Virus genome (UHGV): UHGV-1548554
Origin: a virus
Direction: 5' to 3' (one strand)
DNA length: 10,071 nucleotides
The notes beneath the pieces are model-generated. The model was not told the DNA's origin. It did not search any database and worked only from the letters and a program-made list of their open reading frames with translations. Position numbers and translations under genes: made by a program. Below are positions 1 through 10,071 of this stretch, in pieces. Numbering within the stretch: position 1 is the stretch's first letter; every line of letters starts with the position of its first letter.

Positions 1-1039
1 GTAGGAATTTAAGAACCTGACTGTTAACAAGGGCATTTTGGCGAATGCGCAAATCACGCAATGTCGTATCGCTTCCGGTAAGTTTTGCGAACATGTTCTG
101 TGCGTTACCGAACAAACCTGTCGTTGGTTTTTCTGCTCTGAACTGTTGAGCAAGCGCACTCATAGAATTGGCTGAGTTTGATGATGCTGTGGCATTGTTT
201 ACAGCCGTCTCGATGCCTTTTTCCATGTTTACTGACAGCTTAGGTGCTTCGCTAATCAACTGCTGAGCCTTTTCCTGCGCTTGCTGCATCTTAAACCCGA
301 ACTCTTGCTGATCCAGAGCCAAGCGTTGTGCTGCGATATTGTGCCCAGTCATTGCTGACTGATAGGAAAGGTTTTGCCCTCTCGCCTGAAGTGCTTCACC
401 AGCCTGATTGCTGCGGATTGTCTCTGCCAGTCTGCCTCGGTCAATTTCACGACCAGCCATCTTGTCCTGAACATTGAAGTAATCAATCGGACCAAGAGCA
501 GCCATTCCAAGGTGATCAACAAACTCACCAAATCCTGAAGGGTTCTGCTGATACATCTGAGCAACGTTATTAGGGTCAACACCGACGCGCGCCAGTTCCT
601 TGGCGTTGTTTTGCAGCCATGATTGCATCGCTTCTGGAGACGATGCCGCAAGGCGGGCGCCAGCCGCTAAGGTACCGATGGAATTGCGCTGGTCTTCATC
701 AATGAATCCCATGCCTTTACGAACGGATTCAATCTGGTCTGGATATTGAGTAGCCAACTGACGCAAAGCACCGCGATCACCAGACGCATAAGCATTAGCG
801 TATGCCTGCTGAAATTCTTTCTGCCGCTGAGCCTGCTTTTCCTGCTGAAACACCCCCGCAATACCTGAAAGGCCTTGCAAAGCAGTCAGCCCAACATTGT
901 TAGCGCCTGAACGCTCAATATCATTGTTCTGTCTGATAAGCTGAAGCGTATTGCCGATGTCATTTACGCTCGGAGCGTTTGAGTTGACGCCGCCGATACC
1001 AGCCAACAATCCGCCGTTTGTTCCTTGCCAAGTAGCCAT
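1..1039 (-). CDS. Ejection / DNA-transfer protein (P22 gp20-like), N-terminal 346 codons; 3' end lies beyond the left edge of the window
   Basis: Not in the ORF track because it has no in-window stop. I hand-translated the reverse strand from ATG at 1039..1037 to position 2 and found no stop codon; the protein starts MATWQGTNGGLLAGIGGVNSNAPSVNDIGNTLQLIRQNND. A SD-like AAGGGG sits 6 nt upstream, and the start is 9 nt downstream of the gp7-like stop. Position after gp7 matches P22/Sf6 gene order. The Q/N/A/G-rich composition is typical of these ejection proteins. Confidence 0.75.
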   Translation of the reverse strand, partial: MATWQGTNGGLLAGIGGVNSNAPSVNDIGNTLQLIRQNNDIERSGANNVGLTALQGLSGIAGVFQQEKQAQRQKEFQQAYANAYASGDRGALRQLATQYPDQIESVRKGMGFIDEDQRNSIGTLAAGARLAASSPEAMQSWLQNNAKELARVGVDPNNVAQMYQQNPSGFGEFVDHLGMAALGPIDYFNVQDKMAGREIDRGRLAETIRSNQAGEALQARGQNLSYQSAMTGHNIAAQRLALDQQEFGFKMQQAQEKAQQLISEAPKLSVNMEKGIETAVNNATASSNSANSMSALAQQFRAEKPTTGLFGNAQNMFAKLTGSDTTLRDLRIRQNALVNSQVLKFL

Positions 1040-1048
1040 GATTACCCC

Positions 1049-1741
1049 TTAAAACAACGAGCCAAGCAATCCGATACCAGCACCAATGCCAGCGCCCCAA
1101 GGTGTTGATGTTCCCAAAAGGCTGGCAAGACCTGCACCGGTAATCGCACCAGACGTGCCACCGCTAATTGCAGTCTGAAGACTTGATGGTTTATTGGCAT
1201 TAGCAGCGGCAAGTGCTGCGCTTTGCTGTGCAATGCTGCTCATGTTGTTGGCGTACGTCTGCCCGGCGTTTGCCTGACCTTGCAGCGCACCAAGCCCAAC
1301 GTTTGCCAGATTGTTGTAATTGCTCATCTGATTTGATAACCAAGACTGACCGAGTGTCGGCGCGATCGTAGCCAGTTGATTGCTTGTGGCTGTCGAACCA
1401 AGTCCACCCGTCGCCTCCGCAGCAGCAAGACTCTGGTAACGCGCCTGCCCTGCAAGGTCTTTATACTGCTGAGAGTTGTAATACTGATTAAGTGCCTGCC
1501 CCTGACCTTCTAAACTGGAAAGGTTCTGAAGCTGGTTAACATACTGCTCCGCAAGAGGCGTGAACGGAGCAAGGTTTTTCATGATCGTCTGCCACTGCTG
1601 ATTTTGCAGATCTGCAGCATACTTCTGAGCTTCTGCTGCATACTTTGCGCTTTTATCAGAACTGCCACCTTTCCCGCCTTTTTCAGGGCAATAAGGTTCC
1701 TCGCCGCGCAGTTTTCTGCCCAGCTTAAATGCATATAACAT
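1049..1741 (-). CDS. Ejection protein (P22 gp7-like internal virion protein)
   Basis: 230-aa ORF. The N-terminus MLYAFKLGRKLRGEEPYCPEKGGKGGSS closely matches the P22 gp7 N-terminus as I recall it. ATG start is preceded by GGGAGA 5 nt upstream. It has a Gly/Ala-rich hydrophobic C-terminal tail. Syntenic position between gp14-like and gp20-like genes. Confidence 0.8.
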   Translation of the reverse strand: MLYAFKLGRKLRGEEPYCPEKGGKGGSSDKSAKYAAEAQKYAADLQNQQWQTIMKNLAPFTPLAEQYVNQLQNLSSLEGQGQALNQYYNSQQYKDLAGQARYQSLAAAEATGGLGSTATSNQLATIAPTLGQSWLSNQMSNYNNLANVGLGALQGQANAGQTYANNMSSIAQQSAALAAANANKPSSLQTAISGGTSGAITGAGLASLLGTSTPWGAGIGAGIGLLGSLF

Positions 1742-1743
1742 GG

Positions 1744-2199
1744 CTATCTCCCGTGATTCAGGAAGTCGATTAGTTCTTCGCGTGTGGCGCTGTAAAAAGT
1801 CACGTCATCCACGCCTTTAAAGTATTTCTTGATGGTTCCGACACGCTTAAGGCCAATCATTGCGCAGTAAATCTGCCCGTGGCGGAATTTGCGTGCGGCG
1901 AACGATGTGACGCACTGAACGGTGGTGTTAGTCAGAATGTATCGCCAGAACGCCAGCCCGATTTCCTTGCTGAAGCCGCGAATCTCTGGCAGGTACATGG
2001 CGTGGCAATCGAATGTCAGCGGCTGAATCTCCTGATAGTAAACAATGCCGCCGAACTGCCCGTGCACGTTCACCTCAAAGTAACGGCAATCAGGTTTGTA
2101 GTCGTATCCATCACCGTTGTTGCTCCCGGCGATAATGTCAGGGTGATTTCCTACTGCTTCGATCAGGTCGATGTTTCGCGTTGGTTTGAACTGAATCAT
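1744..2199 (-). CDS. P22 gp14-like protein (ejection-protein assembly / DNA-stabilisation position); function assigned by synteny only
   Basis: 152-aa ORF in the track (1744..2202, starting at GTG). I prefer the ATG at 2199..2197, which overlaps the tail-needle stop as ATGA and suggests translational coupling. Sits between tail needle and gp7-like gene as in P22/Sf6. I do not recognise the sequence itself. Confidence 0.55.
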   Translation of the reverse strand: MIQFKPTRNIDLIEAVGNHPDIIAGSNNGDGYDYKPDCRYFEVNVHGQFGGIVYYQEIQPLTFDCHAMYLPEIRGFSKEIGLAFWRYILTNTTVQCVTSFAARKFRHGQIYCAMIGLKRVGTIKKYFKGVDDVTFYSATREELIDFLNHGR

Positions 2200-3047
2200 C
2201 ACTGCTCCGCAATGATTTTGATGGTTGTGGCAGTAAACGCCGCCCCATTTGACTGAATGGTTAACGTACTGCCATTTGTGGCAAGAAAGCCGTTTTTATC
2301 CACGCTGAAGAACGTAGCTAACAGGATGTTGTCGGTTGTTGTCGCCGAGTTGCGACTGCTTACCAGTGTGTCAGGAACAGAACCGGAAAATGTTAGCTGC
2401 ATTGACCTGTTGGCGGTTCCGCTGGGCCACGTCCCGACAATCGATAGCTTGAAGAACAGGGTTTTGTTCTCGTTGAACACAACCATCTTGTTGTTAACAG
2501 TGTCGAAGAATGGTGCCAACGTGCCGGATGACGGCGTGAGCGTTTTCAGCAGGCTAACAAGGTTGGTCGGCGCTGTCGGGATGGTTACAGATACGCCAGA
2601 GTAAACAACCTCTGACTTCTTGCGCGTGGTTGCATACTCCAGAGCATCAATGCGCGTTTCATGGTCTGAAAGCGTGTTTTGAATGGCGACAACTTCATCA
2701 GTCAGATACTCAATATCGTTTTCTGCTGTCGTTAATCGTGAATCAAGGCCGACTATCGCCGCTTCTGCGTTAGTGATCCTTGTTTCGTGGTCCTGTATCT
2801 TCGCTTCAGCCGATGCCAGTCGAATTTCGTGATCGACCAGAATCACATCCTGCTCATCGTTCCTGACCTGTGCATCATAAGCGCCCTGTCCGGCCTCGTT
2901 GGCCTTGTTAGCCACGTTGCCAACATCAGTACCCTGTGCGATAACGTACAGCAGATATGACTGCGAGAAGATATTGCGTGGAAGGACTGATGTATCGAGC
3001 CGCGTAGCCTGCACAATAACAGGGGTATTGAGATTCGAATCCGCCAT
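2199..3047 (-). CDS. Tail needle protein (P22 gp26 family) with extended C-terminal domain
   Basis: 282-aa ORF. The N-terminal ~60 aa ([43 protein letters not shown]...[11 protein letters not shown]) closely matches the P22 gp26 N-terminal domain as I recall it. It is followed by a heptad-phased segment with three DHE(I/T)R(L/I) motifs at residues 72, 86 and 128, then a ~135-aa S/T/N-rich C-terminal domain. The start ATG overlaps the gp10-like stop (TAATG). Confidence 0.85.
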
Positions 3048-4465
3048 TACTCAATCCTTATCTGGCAGCCAGACAAAGTGACAGGTGACTTCGTGATAAC
3101 GCGCAATTTGAAGCCAATGTTTTTCCTGATGCGCCCTACTTTCTTCCACAAAACGCGTTTGTCGTAAACGAACGGTTCATTCTGCTCAATCATCTGCTCA
3201 CGCCCGTAATTGATGCCGTCAGTGGTTGCAGAGAGGAACAGGCGGTCGGCGTACTGAGCTACGCCAGTGGATGATTCCACCTCCAGATCGAAGCATCTGG
3301 CGTTATCCGCTTTGAACAGTGGAGTAAACAACAGGTGTTCCTGTTGAAGCCCATACTGGCTGCTGATATCGAACTGCAATTTGCCGGTAACCGATTCCAG
3401 CTTATCGCCGCACGTTATCTGATTGCCTTCGTAAATGAAGTCGATAGCGCGGTACACATCGTCATACAAGCCAGTTTTCAACACACACCATTGCGGACCA
3501 TTGGCGCTTGAAGATGCGTCGTACACGAGGACGTGACGCGGAAGATGGATAATCAGCAATTCATGAGCATCAAACCGCAACGATTCCATCACGCCATCAG
3601 CCAGTTCATTAGCAGTGTAGGAACGGAGGATTTTCTCAATGCTCGCGCTGGCGATTGGTGACACCTGCCCGGAGCCGATGATGTATACAGACGGCGCACC
3701 TGTTGCCGGATTGCTGATGAACGCATAGGAATCAGCAAACGGCGTTTTGCAGTAAGTTCCGGCGATGCCTTTTTGCACCATCAGCGATGGCTGCGCGACA
3801 TACAAAGCGGCACCAACAGTGGTTGCACCAGTCAGGGAAAAATATTCAATCGTCGATGAACCAAAGCAGACGATGAAGTCTCGCCATGTTCCGATGCCGA
3901 TGATGCCGTCAGGCTGAGACTCTGCACGATATTGTGCGCTGTATCGGTCAGGGTGCGATTCGTCTTCAAGGTCAGTGATAAACCATGAATCAGTGCCGTC
4001 TTTTGACCACGCATAACGCCCACGTAAGCGCGTAATGTCGCGGACTGAACCTAACTCATACTGCGTGAATCCGCTGTCTGTAGGCCAGTTTGAGACGGTT
4101 TTAACCGTGCCATCATAACGATACTCGACCAGTTGACCATTAACGCCTACCGCCTGTGATGTCCGACCATGCGCCATTGATACGCGACCACTTCCGGCAA
4201 CATCACCGACTTCACTTTCTCCTTTGTACAGTTTGCCACCACACACGCGATAAACAGCACTCTGCGCCATGTTGTACTCGACGCCTCGAGATATACCGTT
4301 CACATCAGAACGTTTGGCAATGCCCGGGAATGAGCGAAGATATCCGCTGCTGTTCAGGATTTCTTTGGGTGTAGCCAGCATATTCACTGGGAGATAGTCG
4401 ATATAGTCGGCGTTTCGAAAGTCTTTGCCGACACCTTTCATAAGCGGAAGTTGCTGAATCGGCAT
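3047..4465 (-). CDS. Tail hub / head-completion protein (P22 gp10 family)
   Basis: 472-aa ORF. The N-terminus [49 protein letters not shown] is near-identical to P22 gp10 as I recall it, and the length matches. SD GGTGA lies 4 nt upstream of the ATG. Position between gp4-like and tail-needle genes. Confidence 0.9.
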
Positions 4466-4474
4466 TTATTCACC

Positions 4475-4936
4475 TCACGTACTCGGATCATCTTTCTCGA
4501 TGTAAAACCGATTCCACGTAAACGCGCTTTTGTTACCACTACCGCGAGGCATGTCATTTCGCCGCTCAAGTGGTGGTATTTTGGTTAAAGCGATACAGAT
4601 TGTTTGATATGCACTGTCAGCAGCGGTAAGGAGAGCGTCTGACGGCTGAATGACGTTATCCATGCACACTTGCACAGCGAGTTTCAAAGCGACGCCATCA
4701 TTTGCCCATGCAGGGATACCTGAATCATCGTCAGGTAACGGCATGATGCCGTTTTCTGTATCAGCAAACTGATACCCAAGCTCGATACCTTTCGCCTGCC
4801 ATGCTGCCATCATGTCTTCGAGGTCATTAATGGCATCTTCAATTGCCTGAGGGTCAGCATCTGTCAACGTGGCATTGGAATACAGCCCGGCTTTTCGTAA
4901 AGCCTTAAGAACGAGATCACCCTTCGTTTTCGCCAT
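4475..4936 (-). CDS. Head-to-tail adaptor protein (P22 gp4 family)
   Basis: 153-aa ORF starting MAKTKGDLVLKALRKAGLYSNATLTDADPQAIEDAINDLEDMMAAWQ, resembling the P22 gp4 N-terminus as I recall it. ATG at 4936 is preceded by GGAAG. Syntenic with P22 gene 4. Confidence 0.85.
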   Translation of the reverse strand: MAKTKGDLVLKALRKAGLYSNATLTDADPQAIEDAINDLEDMMAAWQAKGIELGYQFADTENGIMPLPDDDSGIPAWANDGVALKLAVQVCMDNVIQPSDALLTAADSAYQTICIALTKIPPLERRNDMPRGSGNKSAFTWNRFYIEKDDPST

Positions 4937-5105
4937 CTTCTTCCGCCTTAGCCACTTTTTGCTTCGTTGCGGTTTCTTCAGGAGTTTTTACCCAGCCTTT
5001 TTTCAGGTGAGATTTAACTTCTTCGTCATCAACAATGATGTAATCGACAGCAAACTGACCACAGGTGATCATGTTGCCCGGCTTATAGAGCATTGTTCGT
5101 GCCAT
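4917..5105 (-). CDS. Small hypothetical protein (62 aa) between coat and adaptor genes
   Basis: The track ORF 4917..5144 begins at a TTG inside the terminator hairpin. The internal ATG at 5105..5103 has a strong SD (GGGAGAAG) 6 nt upstream, immediately after the terminator U-tract, giving MARTMLYKPGNMITCGQFAVDYIIVDDEEVKSHLKKGWVKTPEETATKQKVAKAEEDGENEG. Its 3' end overlaps the gp4-like start by 20 nt. Sf6-type genomes carry a small ORF at this position, to my recollection. Confidence 0.5.
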   Translation of the reverse strand: MARTMLYKPGNMITCGQFAVDYIIVDDEEVKSHLKKGWVKTPEETATKQKVAKAEEDGENEG

Positions 5106-5116
5106 TGTCTTCTCCC

Positions 5117-5140
5117 AATAAAAATGGGGCCGAAGCCCCA
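5117..5140 (-). terminator. Rho-independent terminator immediately downstream of the coat gene
   Basis: On the minus-strand RNA, 6 nt after the coat TAA: U-GGGGC-UUCG-GCCCC-A (GC-rich 5-6 bp stem, UUCG tetraloop; + strand 5125..5140) followed directly by UUUUUAUU (+ strand 5117..5124). Confidence 0.6.
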
Positions 5141-5146
5141 CCAAAA

Positions 5147-6400
5147 TTACTGCCCGGCAATAACGATGCCCGTATATTCAGGAACAAGTACAGAGCAACC
5201 ATACAGAGTGGTGAAACGAGCAGTGGTTACGCCTTTGATGTGGTCGAAGGCGTAAGACATGATCAGCGTAGCGCCCTGCTCGGTGGTTGCTGTCATTACC
5301 TGTGGACCCTGACCAGTCGGGAACGCCAGTTTGCCGTACATCAGCTCAACAGAACCATCAGCCCAGAACAGGTTAGCAGGTGCTGCGTTCTTGTTGAGAA
5401 TGGTGATTGCTGCTGATGCTGCCGGTTTGGCATCGACGTTTGCATATGGACGACTCGCAACATCGGCATTTTCAACAGGGAGAATCTTTGGAGAGATTGT
5501 TACGGTAGTTCCGCTAACAGCCAGAACACGGAATACCTGCGGTTGCCCGGTGGTATCTTTTGTGATCTGGTGTACGGAATTCACACCGGCAATGGTGAAC
5601 GCATCACCAACCTGCAAGCCAGATGCAGATACCGTAATAGTCCCCTGTCGGTTATCAACTGGCATACCATTTGAATCTTTCGCTTCAACCTTGTGTTCAG
5701 GTTGGCCTGATACTGTCAAGGATTCAGCGCTTCCTTTCGGTAATCGACCAGAAATATCGGTCTTGTAGCTATCAAAGGAGGCAACCGGAGGGATCTGCGC
5801 TTTTTCGTATGCTGTCAGGGTTGCGCCCTGAGCGTAGGCACGGTGACCAAGCTCGCCAGCAAGGTCTTTGTAGTTGAAGGGGTTCCAGAAAGAGCGACGG
5901 TTGATACCCTGAGGTACACCAATCGCCGTCATGGTGGCATCAATATCTGCCGCACCATTCCACAAGGCAAGGCCCCGTGAGCCATTTTCTGAGGCAGGAA
6001 TTGCGACCACGTTAGTAGCACGCTGCGTGACCATGGAAATCAGGTCAGAGTCAATCTGTGCAGCAAGGCGCATACCTGCGGCGCGACCAGCTTCAGTTTT
6101 ATGTTCCGGGTCACGCATTTCACGCGCATCCAGAGTGTACAGAATGTTTTTCGGCTCCTTGAACACAGAAGGAACAAGGCGCTGAACCAGTGCTGTTGGC
6201 GTTTTGCTGCTGAGATCGAGGCCTTCCTCAATGTTCATGTGGTAATGCTGCGGACGATACAGAACATCACCTGCTCGCTGCATTGCTGTATCACCGGGAC
6301 GGAATTTTTTAGCGTTACGGGAAACTACGCAGGCGGCCTCAAAGCCTTCAACGTAGTTTTCGAACATGATTTCAAGGTCTTTTGCTAATTGGTTAGCCAT
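5147..6400 (-). CDS. Major capsid (coat) protein, P22 gp5 family
   Basis: 417-aa ORF. Length and several segments (e.g. ...MQRAGDVLY..., ...RPYANVDAKPAASAAITILNKNAAPANLFWADGSVEL...) resemble P22 coat protein (about 430 aa) as I recall it. ATG has GGAG 8 nt upstream. Located just after the scaffold gene and followed by a terminator, typical for a highly expressed capsid gene. Confidence 0.88.
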   Translation of the reverse strand: MANQLAKDLEIMFENYVEGFEAACVVSRNAKKFRPGDTAMQRAGDVLYRPQHYHMNIEEGLDLSSKTPTALVQRLVPSVFKEPKNILYTLDAREMRDPEHKTEAGRAAGMRLAAQIDSDLISMVTQRATNVVAIPASENGSRGLALWNGAADIDATMTAIGVPQGINRRSFWNPFNYKDLAGELGHRAYAQGATLTAYEKAQIPPVASFDSYKTDISGRLPKGSAESLTVSGQPEHKVEAKDSNGMPVDNRQGTITVSASGLQVGDAFTIAGVNSVHQITKDTTGQPQVFRVLAVSGTTVTISPKILPVENADVASRPYANVDAKPAASAAITILNKNAAPANLFWADGSVELMYGKLAFPTGQGPQVMTATTEQGATLIMSYAFDHIKGVTTARFTTLYGCSVLVPEYTGIVIAGQ

Positions 6401-6418
6401 GCTTAATGCTCCGATAGG

Positions 6419-7312
6419 TTATTTTTTTGCCTTTTTAGCGGCGAAATACGGCGTCCAGTCACCAGTTTCCAGCGCCTTGGCTTTCAGTTTGTCGAGGTTA
6501 TTGATTACTGCGCCGTTGCTCCCCTTAACTGTCGGGGTTGTGGCTGCCGTGGTTTTTGCTTTTGGCATGATTCTGGCCTTCGATTCGATACGTTCCAGCA
6601 GACGACCAATTGCTACGGGGTTGGTAGCTTCTGCCAGTTGCTTGCGCAGTTCAGCGTTGCGACCGAGTGCCAGAACAACGATTTCCGGCTTCTCTGACTC
6701 AAACAGGATCGCGTTTTGTGTCTCGATGGGGATTTCCTCGAGTACGGCCTGCTCAGCTTCCTGATAGCCAGGAACTTTGAGAGCCTTAACACGTTGCTGA
6801 TATTTGGATAATCGCTCTTGATAGGCAGCCTGAAGCTCCTGCTCCTTCTGCTTGCGAGCCATCTCCTGTTGCTGGTACTTGCCGTTATCCTCTGCCCACT
6901 TAGCCATGCGTTGCTGGTAGATTTCTTCATCGAAACCGATGTCCTCATCATCCAGTTTTGGCATTCGCGGTGGTTGAGTGATTACCGGCTGCTGCTCGAC
7001 GGGTTTCTGAGACTGACGCATCAGCTCTTTCAGCTCGCGGTCTTTCTCTTTAATCGTCTTGCGCAGGTGTTTTACCAGTCCATGCTCTGCGCCATCTTCG
7101 CTGGTTGGCGAATCCAGCTTTTCGTCACCAAAGTAGAATTCCTGTTCTGATTCGTCGTCATCAGTTTCAGTAGCTTCCTCTGCATCATTGCCGGAGGACT
7201 CGCTGCCATCTTCTGTTTCGACTTCTTCAGCCAGTTCGACATCATCAGGAATCTGCTCTGACGCGTCGGGTTCGATTTCAACTTCTGGTGTGTTTTCTGC
7301 CATCTGGTCCAT
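6419..7312 (-). CDS. Scaffolding protein (P22 gp8-like by position and composition)
   Basis: 297-aa ORF between portal and coat. The N-terminal ~75 aa are about 40% Asp/Glu, the middle is Q/E/K-rich and helical-looking, and the basic C-terminus (...NNLDKLKAKALETGDWTPYFAAKKAKK) resembles the coat-binding C-terminal region of P22 scaffold (KLKAK motif). Its stop is 18 nt before the coat start. Confidence 0.7.
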   Translation of the reverse strand: MDQMAENTPEVEIEPDASEQIPDDVELAEEVETEDGSESSGNDAEEATETDDDESEQEFYFGDEKLDSPTSEDGAEHGLVKHLRKTIKEKDRELKELMRQSQKPVEQQPVITQPPRMPKLDDEDIGFDEEIYQQRMAKWAEDNGKYQQQEMARKQKEQELQAAYQERLSKYQQRVKALKVPGYQEAEQAVLEEIPIETQNAILFESEKPEIVVLALGRNAELRKQLAEATNPVAIGRLLERIESKARIMPKAKTTAATTPTVKGSNGAVINNLDKLKAKALETGDWTPYFAAKKAKK

Positions 7313-7402
7313 TTGTTACCCCTGTTTACTCGATGTTCAGCCCATCGGAAGGCAATAGGGTGCCAGGCCTCATAAAGACAGCCATTGCACGTTATGGGTT
7401 AA

Positions 7403-7867
7403 TTACTGCTGTGGTTGTTGCTGAGTTGATTTTTGCAGGATGCTGCTGATGTCCATGCGCTGCGCATGGCCCTGTGCCTGACTTTTCAGGACAAGCTCTG
7501 CATCAGCACGGGCATTGTCTCCTTGCTGTTGCTGGAACTGTCCGAGCAGTTTCAGAGCCTCGCGGATATCAGATTTTTGCTGGCTATCGGCAGATGCGAG
7601 GATTTTCACAACATTTGCCGCTGCAACCTGAGCATCAGTCTGTGCCTGGAATGCTTTAACCTGAATGGCTGCCTGTTCGTTCTGCGCTTTCTGTAATTCA
7701 GCCTGACCAGCAAGAAGCTGACCTTGCGCTGCAACCATAGCCGGATCTGGCTGACTGGCCTGTTGTTGTTTCGCCTGTTCAACCATCTGCTGTTCTTCAG
7801 GCGTTCTCGGCTTGATAACGCCAGACAGAAGCAACTGATTGCGGTTGTATTCTTTCAGGTCGTCCAT
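7403..7867 (-). CDS. Portal protein, C-terminal helical 'barrel' region, in a different frame from the portal body (frameshift fragment)
   Basis: 154-aa ORF. ...KPRTPEEQQMVEQAKQQQASQPDPAMVAAQGQLLAGQAELQKAQ...NARADAELVLKSQAQGHAQRMDISSILQ matches the C-terminal region of the P22 portal (gp1) as I recall it. Its frame is offset by 1 nt from ORF 7797..9596. Confidence 0.75.
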   Translation of the reverse strand: MDDLKEYNRNQLLLSGVIKPRTPEEQQMVEQAKQQQASQPDPAMVAAQGQLLAGQAELQKAQNEQAAIQVKAFQAQTDAQVAAANVVKILASADSQQKSDIREALKLLGQFQQQQGDNARADAELVLKSQAQGHAQRMDISSILQKSTQQQPQQ

Positions 7868-9596
7868 CCCCGTCCATATTGTCGAGAATCATCGACGATA
7901 CAAGGTCGTGCTTCGGCGTTCCTGGTGGGATAAGTGCCAGCATGGAAAGTAACGACTTAACCGTTGCATCACGGCGAGTAGCGAACGACTGACCGACATC
8001 GACAGTCACTTCATAGTTACCCTGCGAAAGGTCGTTAAGCGCGATAACCTGCCCTGTCTGACGGTCAACCACTTCACCAGTCATCAGCGCCACGTCATCG
8101 CTGCCGTCCTCATTAACGATGCGCATTGGCGTATCGCTGCCATAGACCTCACGCGCCATAGAAAGCCACACGACGCCAGCACGGCGCATGGATTTAGCCA
8201 TGTTGTCCATGTAGATATAGGACTGCGTGTCCATCCGGTTAAAGATGCTATCAACGGTATCGGTAGCGACGTTGCTCGGCATGTTCTCAAGCTGCGACGC
8301 ACCTGTAATTTGCTGAATAGCCGTTCCGGTGTACTGCAATAGCCCGGCAAGAGCAGGAGGCATTTGTGTCGGAGGTGTCCAGCCAGCAACCTGAGCCTCT
8401 GAAATGACCGTTCCGTTTTTGTCCTTCTTGCTGGTCATGGGAAGAACTGCAGGTCTTTTCTTATTCCTCTCTGCCCAGTGATTCATTAATGGACCGGGAA
8501 TGAAATCAACATCCACGATAGGAATGCCATCACCGCCAGCCTGAGTAGCGTTATCTGCAATCATGGAAACCATCAGGTTCTCAAGACGCTGTGCATCCAT
8601 CGCTTTTGCTGCGTGGCCTTCGATTCGCTCCTGATTATCAACAAATGAACGACGCCCATATACCGGGATGAGAGGAATATGTTCACCCGGAATACGCTTC
8701 GGTTCTTCCAGCCATTCAGCGCCAGACAGAAGACCGCAATAAACGCGGCGCTTCTTCACCGTTCGCTCGCCAATCAGTTCGAATGCACCATCGGTCAGCT
8801 CGTCGACAATATCTTTGATTTGCTCTTCATCATAAATTGCCGTTTCTCCGCTAACAGGGTTGCGCCACGCCGTGAGCTTCACCTTCTCTATGCGAACTTC
8901 GTAGTAGCGTCCAACATAGATGGCATCAGGCGTTGACCAGTCATATTGAGTGCCAGTGTCATCACGAGAAAGACTTGCAGCGATGGAATCAGGGTATTCA
9001 GCTTCGAACGCTTTAGGCGTCATGGAGAACATTTCCATAGCCCACATAGCATCAGAGCGGTCATATTGCTTGCTGTCCTGATCGAAGAAGACGCATGTCG
9101 CTGGGTCGTAAACAGGAAGAAGGCTTATACGGCGTTGCTCGTTACTCGGATCCATTTCATCTTCGTAATCGGCACACATGCGGAAACAACCGAATCCGCC
9201 CGTTACAGCATCATCAAATGCGTTATCACACGCTTCGCCACCGGATGTTTCCTGATAGTCAGCGCGGAATTTGCCGTTCATCTTTTCGGCTAACGCTTCC
9301 GATGCCTTATCGTCCTTCGGCCTGAATTTAACGCTGATGCGATTCTGTCGATACTCGCCAATGATGCGATCACATTCACGGGCAATCTTATTCAGTTCAA
9401 AGCGCGGATAATGCTCAAACCTGCCTTCATCAAATGAGTAACCAGCGTTTGTGCTGCCTTCCCACTGTGCGCCGGACACCCGGACGAAACGTTGAGCCTC
9501 AATAATCTGCTCACGCATATCCTGCGTTGCTGACCAGGCATTATCAAAGTTGCACAGCACCTTGCGATGCCAGTCAGTCATCTTTTTTTCTGCCAT
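7797..9596 (-). CDS. Portal protein (P22 gp1 family), N-terminal 599-aa ORF; homology to portal ends ~22 codons before its stop
   Basis: Segments such as ...KKRRVYCGLLSG... and ...GEHIPLIPVYG... match conserved P22 portal motifs (RRRVY, GEHIPIVPVFG) as I recall them. ATG at 9596 lies 1 nt after the terminase stop (TGAtATG). Confidence 0.9.
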   Translation of the reverse strand: MAEKKMTDWHRKVLCNFDNAWSATQDMREQIIEAQRFVRVSGAQWEGSTNAGYSFDEGRFEHYPRFELNKIARECDRIIGEYRQNRISVKFRPKDDKASEALAEKMNGKFRADYQETSGGEACDNAFDDAVTGGFGCFRMCADYEDEMDPSNEQRRISLLPVYDPATCVFFDQDSKQYDRSDAMWAMEMFSMTPKAFEAEYPDSIAASLSRDDTGTQYDWSTPDAIYVGRYYEVRIEKVKLTAWRNPVSGETAIYDEEQIKDIVDELTDGAFELIGERTVKKRRVYCGLLSGAEWLEEPKRIPGEHIPLIPVYGRRSFVDNQERIEGHAAKAMDAQRLENLMVSMIADNATQAGGDGIPIVDVDFIPGPLMNHWAERNKKRPAVLPMTSKKDKNGTVISEAQVAGWTPPTQMPPALAGLLQYTGTAIQQITGASQLENMPSNVATDTVDSIFNRMDTQSYIYMDNMAKSMRRAGVVWLSMAREVYGSDTPMRIVNEDGSDDVALMTGEVVDRQTGQVIALNDLSQGNYEVTVDVGQSFATRRDATVKSLLSMLALIPPGTPKHDLVSSMILDNMDGDGRPERIQPQSVASVWRYQAENA

Positions 9597-9597
9597 A

Positions 9598-10071
9598 TCA
9601 ACCTACACCACAAGGAATTGAGTAACTGGAATAGTCGGGTTGCGCAGCCGACTCCGGGCAATGCATACACATCATCAGCGCATCAGCCAGGTTAGGAGAT
9701 GGAATACCGAGCTTCTGCTTCATTTCGACCTTAGTCATTAGCTCCAGCTTCCCGTTGTTATTGAATTTGCGCTGAATCTGCGTCAGTTCTGCAAACAGCT
9801 TCTCCAGCATCTTCTCGCCTATTGCTTCTTTGTCGAAACTCAGCATGTCGTCGGGGTCTGCATACTCACCGTGGACAACCGCCCGATATGTCAGATAAAG
9901 CCTGTCAGCCAGCGCGTAATAGAATTGCGCTCGCTTATTGCGGAACACATCACCAATAGTGCGAACGTTGTCGCCCTGTACGACTTCATCGGCCCATGCT
10001 CCGGCCTGATATGGTGCATCTTCATCGAATGGCGATTCGCTGCCCTTGAACATCGTGGCGGTGATTTTCTT
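9598..10071 (-). CDS. Terminase large subunit, C-terminal 157 codons (5' end beyond the right edge of the window)
   Basis: The reading frame is open from the window edge (rc of 10054..10071 = KKITAT, no stop) to TGA at 9600..9598. It sits immediately upstream of and co-directional with the portal gene, as in P22/Sf6. I do not recognise the sequence itself, so the call is by synteny. Confidence 0.72.
   Translation of the reverse strand, partial: KKITATMFKGSESPFDEDAPYQAGAWADEVVQGDNVRTIGDVFRNKRAQFYYALADRLYLTYRAVVHGEYADPDDMLSFDKEAIGEKMLEKLFAELTQIQRKFNNNGKLELMTKVEMKQKLGIPSPNLADALMMCMHCPESAAQPDYSSYSIPCGVG

Follow-up and report, generated by a model that had tools for sequence, protein, structure and literature searches.

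The analyzed window is a stretch of 10,071 nucleotides from the virus genome UHGV-1548554. Its genes, all on the minus strand, run from the end of the terminase gene through the portal, scaffold and coat genes, the homologues of gp4 and gp10, a tail needle gene, and the homologues of gp14 and gp7 to the start of gp20, and they are the late operon of a P22-like (Lederbergvirus) podovirus prophage of the E. coli/Shigella type. The needle gene, its parts and its neighbors are as follows:

3047..4465, minus strand: tail hub gene, homologue of P22 gp10, upstream neighbor (Pfam PF11134, E = 1.7e-298)
2199..3047, minus strand: tail needle gene, 282 aa plus stop codon, homologue of Sf6 gene 9 and P22 gene 26
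2844..3047, minus strand: N-terminal domain of the needle (aa 1-68), expected to plug the tail hub channel; 93-100% nucleotide identity to Sf6, common to the P22 and HK620 needles
2637..2843, minus strand: trimeric coiled-coil shaft (aa 69-137), which aligns to the P22 gp26 coiled coil
2672..2838, minus strand: apparently exchangeable coiled-coil cassette (aa 70-126), an allele that differs from that of Sf6
2202..2636, minus strand: Sf6-type tail needle knob, TNF-like jellyroll (aa 138-282), with PDB and Pfam matches
2197..2201, minus strand: TGATG overlap, in which the needle stop codon (2199-2201) and the ATG of the next gene (2197-2199) share one base; reads cagTGATGatt
1744..2199, minus strand: homologue of P22 gene 14 (DUF2824), downstream neighbor (Pfam PF11039, E = 1e-53)
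1049..1741, minus strand: ejection protein gene, homologue of P22 gp7 (Pfam PF25688, E = 1.6e-134)

The gene order gp10-needle-gp14-gp7 matches that of Sf6 and P22. The TAA stop codon of the gp10 homologue overlaps the needle ATG (TAATG), and a one-base overlap of the TGATG type between the needle gene and the gene 14 homologue is also annotated in Sf6 and in E. coli 55989; with overlaps at both ends, the needle gene sits within a tightly packed late operon. A promoter scan of positions 1500..3500 returned zero promoter-like sites, and a terminator scan of the same interval returned terminator-like sites at chance level only. Antisense open reading frames over the knob, 2257..2604 (+) and 1879..2256 (+), had no Pfam matches and were taken as spurious. 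Farther upstream, a small open reading frame at 4917..5144 (-) separates the coat gene from the gp4 homologue, in a position that matches P22 orf69 and the 'hypothetical protein' genes of Sf101 and of E. coli prophages.

The needle is assigned to the gp26 family by 60% identity to P22 gp26 (233 aa, NC_002371) over residues 1-137, by matches of PDB gp26 entries at E = 1e-45 to 1e-49, and by its position between the PF11134 (gp10) and PF11039 (gp14) homologues. The N-terminal domain by itself matches the P22 gp26 N-terminal fragment 8EAP_B in a PDB sequence search (E = 1e-27). The shaft is equal in length to that of Sf6, which has 11 heptads (PMC3741392). The original prediction for this locus, which was made for positions 2199..2615, i.e., residues 145-282 and the stop codon of the needle frame, was correct in describing the N-terminal domain and the coiled coil as P22-like. 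It went on to describe a C-terminal extension of ~135 aa, rich in S, T and N and probably in beta structure, that is absent from the short P22-type needle, comparable to the knob of Sf6-type needles, and likely to be a host-range module.

The guess of an Sf6-type knob proved right. In a search of all PDB sequences, residues 131-282 were identical at 150 of 152 positions to the knob of Sf6 gp9 (PDB 3RWN, E = 8.9e-90) and, likewise at 150 of 152 positions, to the knob of the HS1 needle (PDB 4K6B, chain 4K6B_A, E = 2.8e-89). The Pfam family PF16532 (Phage_tail_NK, "Sf6-type phage tail needle knob") matched with 361.2 bits (E = 9.3e-109), compared to a cut-off of 27 bits, and residues 109-282 spanned profile positions 2-175 of 175. 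Over its whole length of 282 aa the protein is 85% identical to Sf6 gp9 with zero gaps, and the 41 differences are distributed unevenly: two at residues 8 and 12, 37 at residues 71 to 126, and two in the knob, D252N and S270A, of which S270A is also found in HS1. The gene is 99.5% identical in nucleotides to the E. coli 55989 gene for a 'tail needle knob protein', and the same product name is given to such proteins by RefSeq and the NCBI annotation pipeline. At the level of sequence, these PDB, Pfam and RefSeq matches settle the identity of the domain as an Sf6-type knob.

The fold is supported in several ways. Homologous knob crystal structures are seven-stranded beta jellyrolls (PMC3741392; the original description of the Sf6 knob by Bhardwaj et al. 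2011 is used here as relayed by that paper), and S, T and N make up 36% of residues 138-282, compared to 19-22% of the N-terminal and coiled-coil parts, in agreement with the predicted S/T/N-rich, beta-rich character. Since crystal structures with 99% identity exist, a monomer-only model was used as a fold check. The single-sequence AlphaFold2 monomer of residues 127-282 was of moderate quality (pLDDT 65, pTM 0.65); Foldseek ranked 3RWN and 4K6B first (TM-score 0.78, E about 3e-20), ahead of TNF-family, C1q and PRD1 P5 jellyrolls. The model thus points to a TNF-like jellyroll for the knob protomer, which is also implied by the 99% identity to solved structures. The published knob is a homotrimer with L-glutamate at each subunit interface (PMC3741392), and the ligand is contacted by E146, K200, S248, D250, L255 and K277 in Sf6 numbering (Leavitt et al., PMC3741392). 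All six contact residues are kept at the same positions in the window's knob, and a trimer with bound L-glutamate is predicted from this conservation. Also present is the phosphate triad S231-R232-N233, which lies at the distal tip and is conserved in all P22-like knobs (PMC3741392). Codon 252 (2292..2294, minus strand) reads AAC rather than GAC, so that Asn252 stands two positions away from Asp250, one of the L-glutamate ligands; in a comparison of nine knob sequences, the window alone had Asn at this site.

The relationship of the knob to the P22-type needle is that of a replacement. P22 gp26 aligned to residues 1-137 of the needle only, with no significant alignment past residue 137, and the P22 and HK620 tips were unmatched to the knob in a multiple alignment; the C-terminal part is thus not P22-like, as had been claimed. 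P22 gp26 has its own 93-aa C-terminal tip, codons 141-233 (PMC3741392). Therefore, the extra domain was recognized correctly, while its description as an addition to a short needle was not: comparison of the two proteins indicates the replacement of a 93-aa tip by a knob of ~143 aa, with a net gain of 49 aa. The start of the domain was placed roughly right, at residue 145, compared to the published boundary at residue 140.

We compared the needle gene in 30-nt bins to seven phages and five E. coli prophages, and the gene appears from this comparison as a mosaic of three modules. The first (residues 1-69) is 83-100% identical to Sf6, Louie, HK620 and JEP4. The second is a coiled-coil cassette with sharp edges that occurs in at least two alleles, with about 50% nucleotide identity between them; its flanks are 90-100% identical, and heptad register and length are kept between the alleles. 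The window's allele is also present in E. coli 55989, O128:H27 90-9281, 20AR0354 and UID2309220041 (93-100% identity), and the other allele in Sf6, Louie and E. coli O111:H8 2009C-3675 (47-60% nucleotide identity to the window). BLAST comparison with the E. coli O111:H8 prophage breaks exactly at window positions 2671 and 2839, which delimits the cassette to 2672..2838. The third module, from about residue 127 to the end, contains the last coiled-coil turns (a stretch of 12 residues) and the knob, and is 90-100% identical across all knob-bearing E. coli and Shigella needles compared. The same three-part pattern has been published for HS1, with 98% identity in the N-terminal domain, 67% in the shaft, and 99% in the knob (PMC3741392). 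In E. coli 20AR0354, the gene directly adjoining the needle start (locus 842..849) is not the gp10 homologue but one with a NUMOD4 domain (homing-endonuclease-like).

Similarity to the P22-type needles (P22 and HK620) stops at residues 137-140, i.e., at about window positions 2628-2637, and in JEP4, which has a longer, HS1-like shaft (317 aa), high identity resumes at about gene nucleotide 420, which corresponds to about window position 2628. Putative recombination junctions can thus be placed at about 2838/2839 and 2671/2672 for the cassette, and at about 2628-2637 for the exchange between knob and P22-type tip. A junction had been expected near 2615..2630; the expectation of a recombination junction stood, and the breakpoints lie 0-55 nucleotides further into the coiled coil. 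In the suggested check of GC content and codon usage, the knob carries no foreign signature: its GC content of 0.506 equals that of the window, and its GC3 of 0.628 is within the range of the neighboring genes (0.46-0.65). On the plus strand, GC skew is positive from 2100 to 2700, probably because the knob is rich in Thr and Ser codons.

Mosaicism is also seen at the scale of the whole window. E. coli 55989 matches the window at 1025-4475 and 9654-10071 only, and the head genes, from the gp4 homologue to the portal gene (4476..9653), have no megablast-level match in that genome. Within the matching part, the needle gene is 99.5% identical, compared to 93% for the surrounding tail and ejection genes. 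This indicates that the window is a mosaic relative to E. coli 55989, with a recent exchange of either the needle gene or the head-gene blocks.

The needle gene is widely distributed. It was matched in 896 of 5426 complete E. coli genomes, with at least 80% of the gene covered in 315 of these. Among phage records, 16 matched the needle gene at the nucleotide level and 296 matched the knob at the protein level, the latter mostly with less than 60% identity; the low-identity matches come from Vi01-like, T4-like, Aeromonas, Dickeya, Edwardsiella and Vibrio phages. This widens the set of 21 knob homologues "outside" the P22-like phages that were known in 2013. The Salmonella Lederbergvirus vB_SalP_ABTNLsp11242 has a needle (locus 1072..1938) with a 77%-identical knob, and the needle gene of Klebsiella phage phiKp_30 (host as recorded) is 95% identical in nucleotides. 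Within the P22-like phages, the knob was described in 2013 as confined to phages of Escherichia and Shigella, with a divergence of at most 4.9%, and the Salmonella and Klebsiella carriers update this statement.

In the needle trimer, the N-terminal domain is known to close off the channel of the tail hub (PMC9728967). The trimer projects past the tailspikes with the knob at its distal end, and it is released at infection (PMC3741392, PMC9400499). We consider it very probable that the domain under study is the Sf6-type knob of a P22-like prophage needle, a jellyroll tip that acts on the kinetics of delivery and not on host specificity. Under this explanation, the N-terminal domain of the trimer would plug the hub channel and retain the DNA within the head, the coiled coil would form the shaft, and the last ~143 residues would fold into a TNF-like jellyroll knob with one L-glutamate per subunit interface. 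The knob would have been substituted for the unrelated P22-type tip through recombination of modules where the coiled coil ends. After contact of the needle with the envelope, the tip would influence the speed of delivery of DNA and ejection proteins, with the knob serving either in the release trigger or as a mechanical punch about 45 Å wide; host specificity would be determined by the tailspike, not by the needle tip. Identity and fold are established by the matches given above, and the functional part would carry over from what has been published on knobs with 99% identity.

The most direct evidence comes from tip exchanges (Leavitt et al. 2013, PMC3741392). P22 with Sf6 codons 69-282, or with the HS1 knob alone, had normal titres and plaques and infected Salmonella normally, and mutation of the L-glutamate ligands had no measurable effect. 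A foldon-tipped needle was tolerated, with virion infectivity reduced to 0.13 relative to the parent phage. Changes of the tip slowed the release of potassium from the host. The conclusion of the authors was that the tip is unlikely to contribute to host specificity and that it modulates how fast DNA is delivered. All Sf6 mutants with an expanded host range have been mapped to the tailspike, the protein that also contains the OmpC-binding region (PMC9400499). By analogy, a kinetic or mechanical role would be the best-supported function of the window's knob. It should be noted that the published swaps were made in P22 on Salmonella under laboratory conditions.

These data bear directly on the claim of a host-range module, under which the knob would recognize a secondary receptor of E. 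coli or Shigella, and would thereby decide which hosts can be infected. The needle tip is placed to meet the outer membrane first (PMC3741392), its fold resembles the receptor-binding knobs of adenovirus and PRD1, and the hosts of the knob-bearing P22-like phages known in 2013 were all Escherichia or Shigella, with a knob in none of the 48 Salmonella P22-like phages. However, P22 bearing the Sf6 or HS1 knob retains infection of Salmonella, even the foldon tip works, and the Sf6 mutants are in the tailspike only. Moreover, the knobs of P22-like phages diverge by at most 4.9%, unlike a diversifying receptor-binding protein, and the Salmonella and Klebsiella phages described above carry a 77%-identical knob and a 95%-identical needle gene, respectively. 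We therefore regard host-range determination by the knob as very unlikely, and this part of the original prediction is not upheld. A narrower possibility is that the knob with Asn252 has a host-specific sensing or triggering role when the host is a native one (E. coli or Shigella), through an envelope component or a ligand. Such a role would escape notice because the swaps were of P22 on Salmonella in the laboratory, and Leavitt et al. allow for a specific function of the tip on native hosts (PMC3741392); nonetheless, we consider it very improbable, and the effect on delivery kinetics is the reading that we retain.

The state of the prophage is a separate consideration. The portal region (7403..9596, minus strand) is split into a 599-aa frame (7797..9596) and a 154-aa frame (7403..7867) by a 5-bp deletion, GCGAA, near window position 7871, as judged against Sf101 and the nearest E. 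coli prophages. Across the entire window, identity to the best-matching complete E. coli genomes is 96.8%, and the nearest prophages align over 10076 bases, compared to 10071 in the window. The prophage may be defective, or the portal sequence may contain an assembly error; if the frameshift is real, this copy of the needle may never be assembled into virions. Conceivably, then, the needle gene is an inert relic without current function, in line with the broken portal gene and with the more than 100 E. coli genomes that are reported to have small P22-like remnants with an Sf6-type needle gene. Conversely, the needle frame is intact and of full length, as are all remaining late genes of the window; only 4 nucleotides and 1 amino acid separate the needle gene from its E. 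coli 55989 counterpart, and the portal deletion could be an assembly error. A relic thus appears unlikely, and in any case that interpretation bears on the state of the prophage, not on the identity of the domain.

The knob, its structure, its modular exchange and its distribution were already published. With two crystal structures, a Pfam family, a RefSeq product name, a dedicated functional study and a RefSeq protein one residue away, the locus has little weight as a discovery. The useful outcome is a correct annotation: a needle with an Sf6-type knob, three modules that appear exchangeable, and a portal gene that is apparently broken. The view of the needle tip as a host-range module is a common assumption, and it is contradicted by experiment for the Sf6-type knob family.

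Compared to known needles, the window's protein combines parts that are each found elsewhere. Sf6 gp9 (3RWN) has the same length of 282 aa, the same gene position, and a nearly identical N-terminal domain; its knob differs only at the two positions given above and has identical ligand residues, whereas its coiled-coil cassette (aa 70-126) is the other allele, with about 50% nucleotide identity. The needle of HS1, a prophage of E. coli HS (4K6B), shares Ala270 with the window and differs in the crystallized region by Ser instead of Asp134 and by Asp instead of Asn252; its shaft has 16 heptads in a protein of 317 aa, compared to 11 heptads in the window type. The needle of E. coli 55989 (WP_000785535.1) has 845 of 849 nucleotides and 281 of 282 amino acids identical, the coiled-coil allele included, and N252D as the sole substitution; in that prophage, however, the head genes belong to a different type and the identity of the flanking genes is only 93%. 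P22 gp26 (2POH, 3C9I) has a homologous plug domain and coiled coil, the same gene position and the same role as a channel plug, whereas its tip (codons 141-233) is unrelated to the knob in sequence and fold. The converse arrangement is found in phages that are not P22-like, which carry PF16532 at the C-terminus of proteins without the gp26-like N-terminal plug and coiled coil. These include Vi01-like Ackermannviridae, T4-like phages (for example, Citrobacter phage Margaery and Aeromonas phage 44RR2.8t), and Edwardsiella and Vibrio phages; their knobs have 38-58% identity, are often annotated as 'tail needle knob', and are reported to conserve the L-glutamate ligands.
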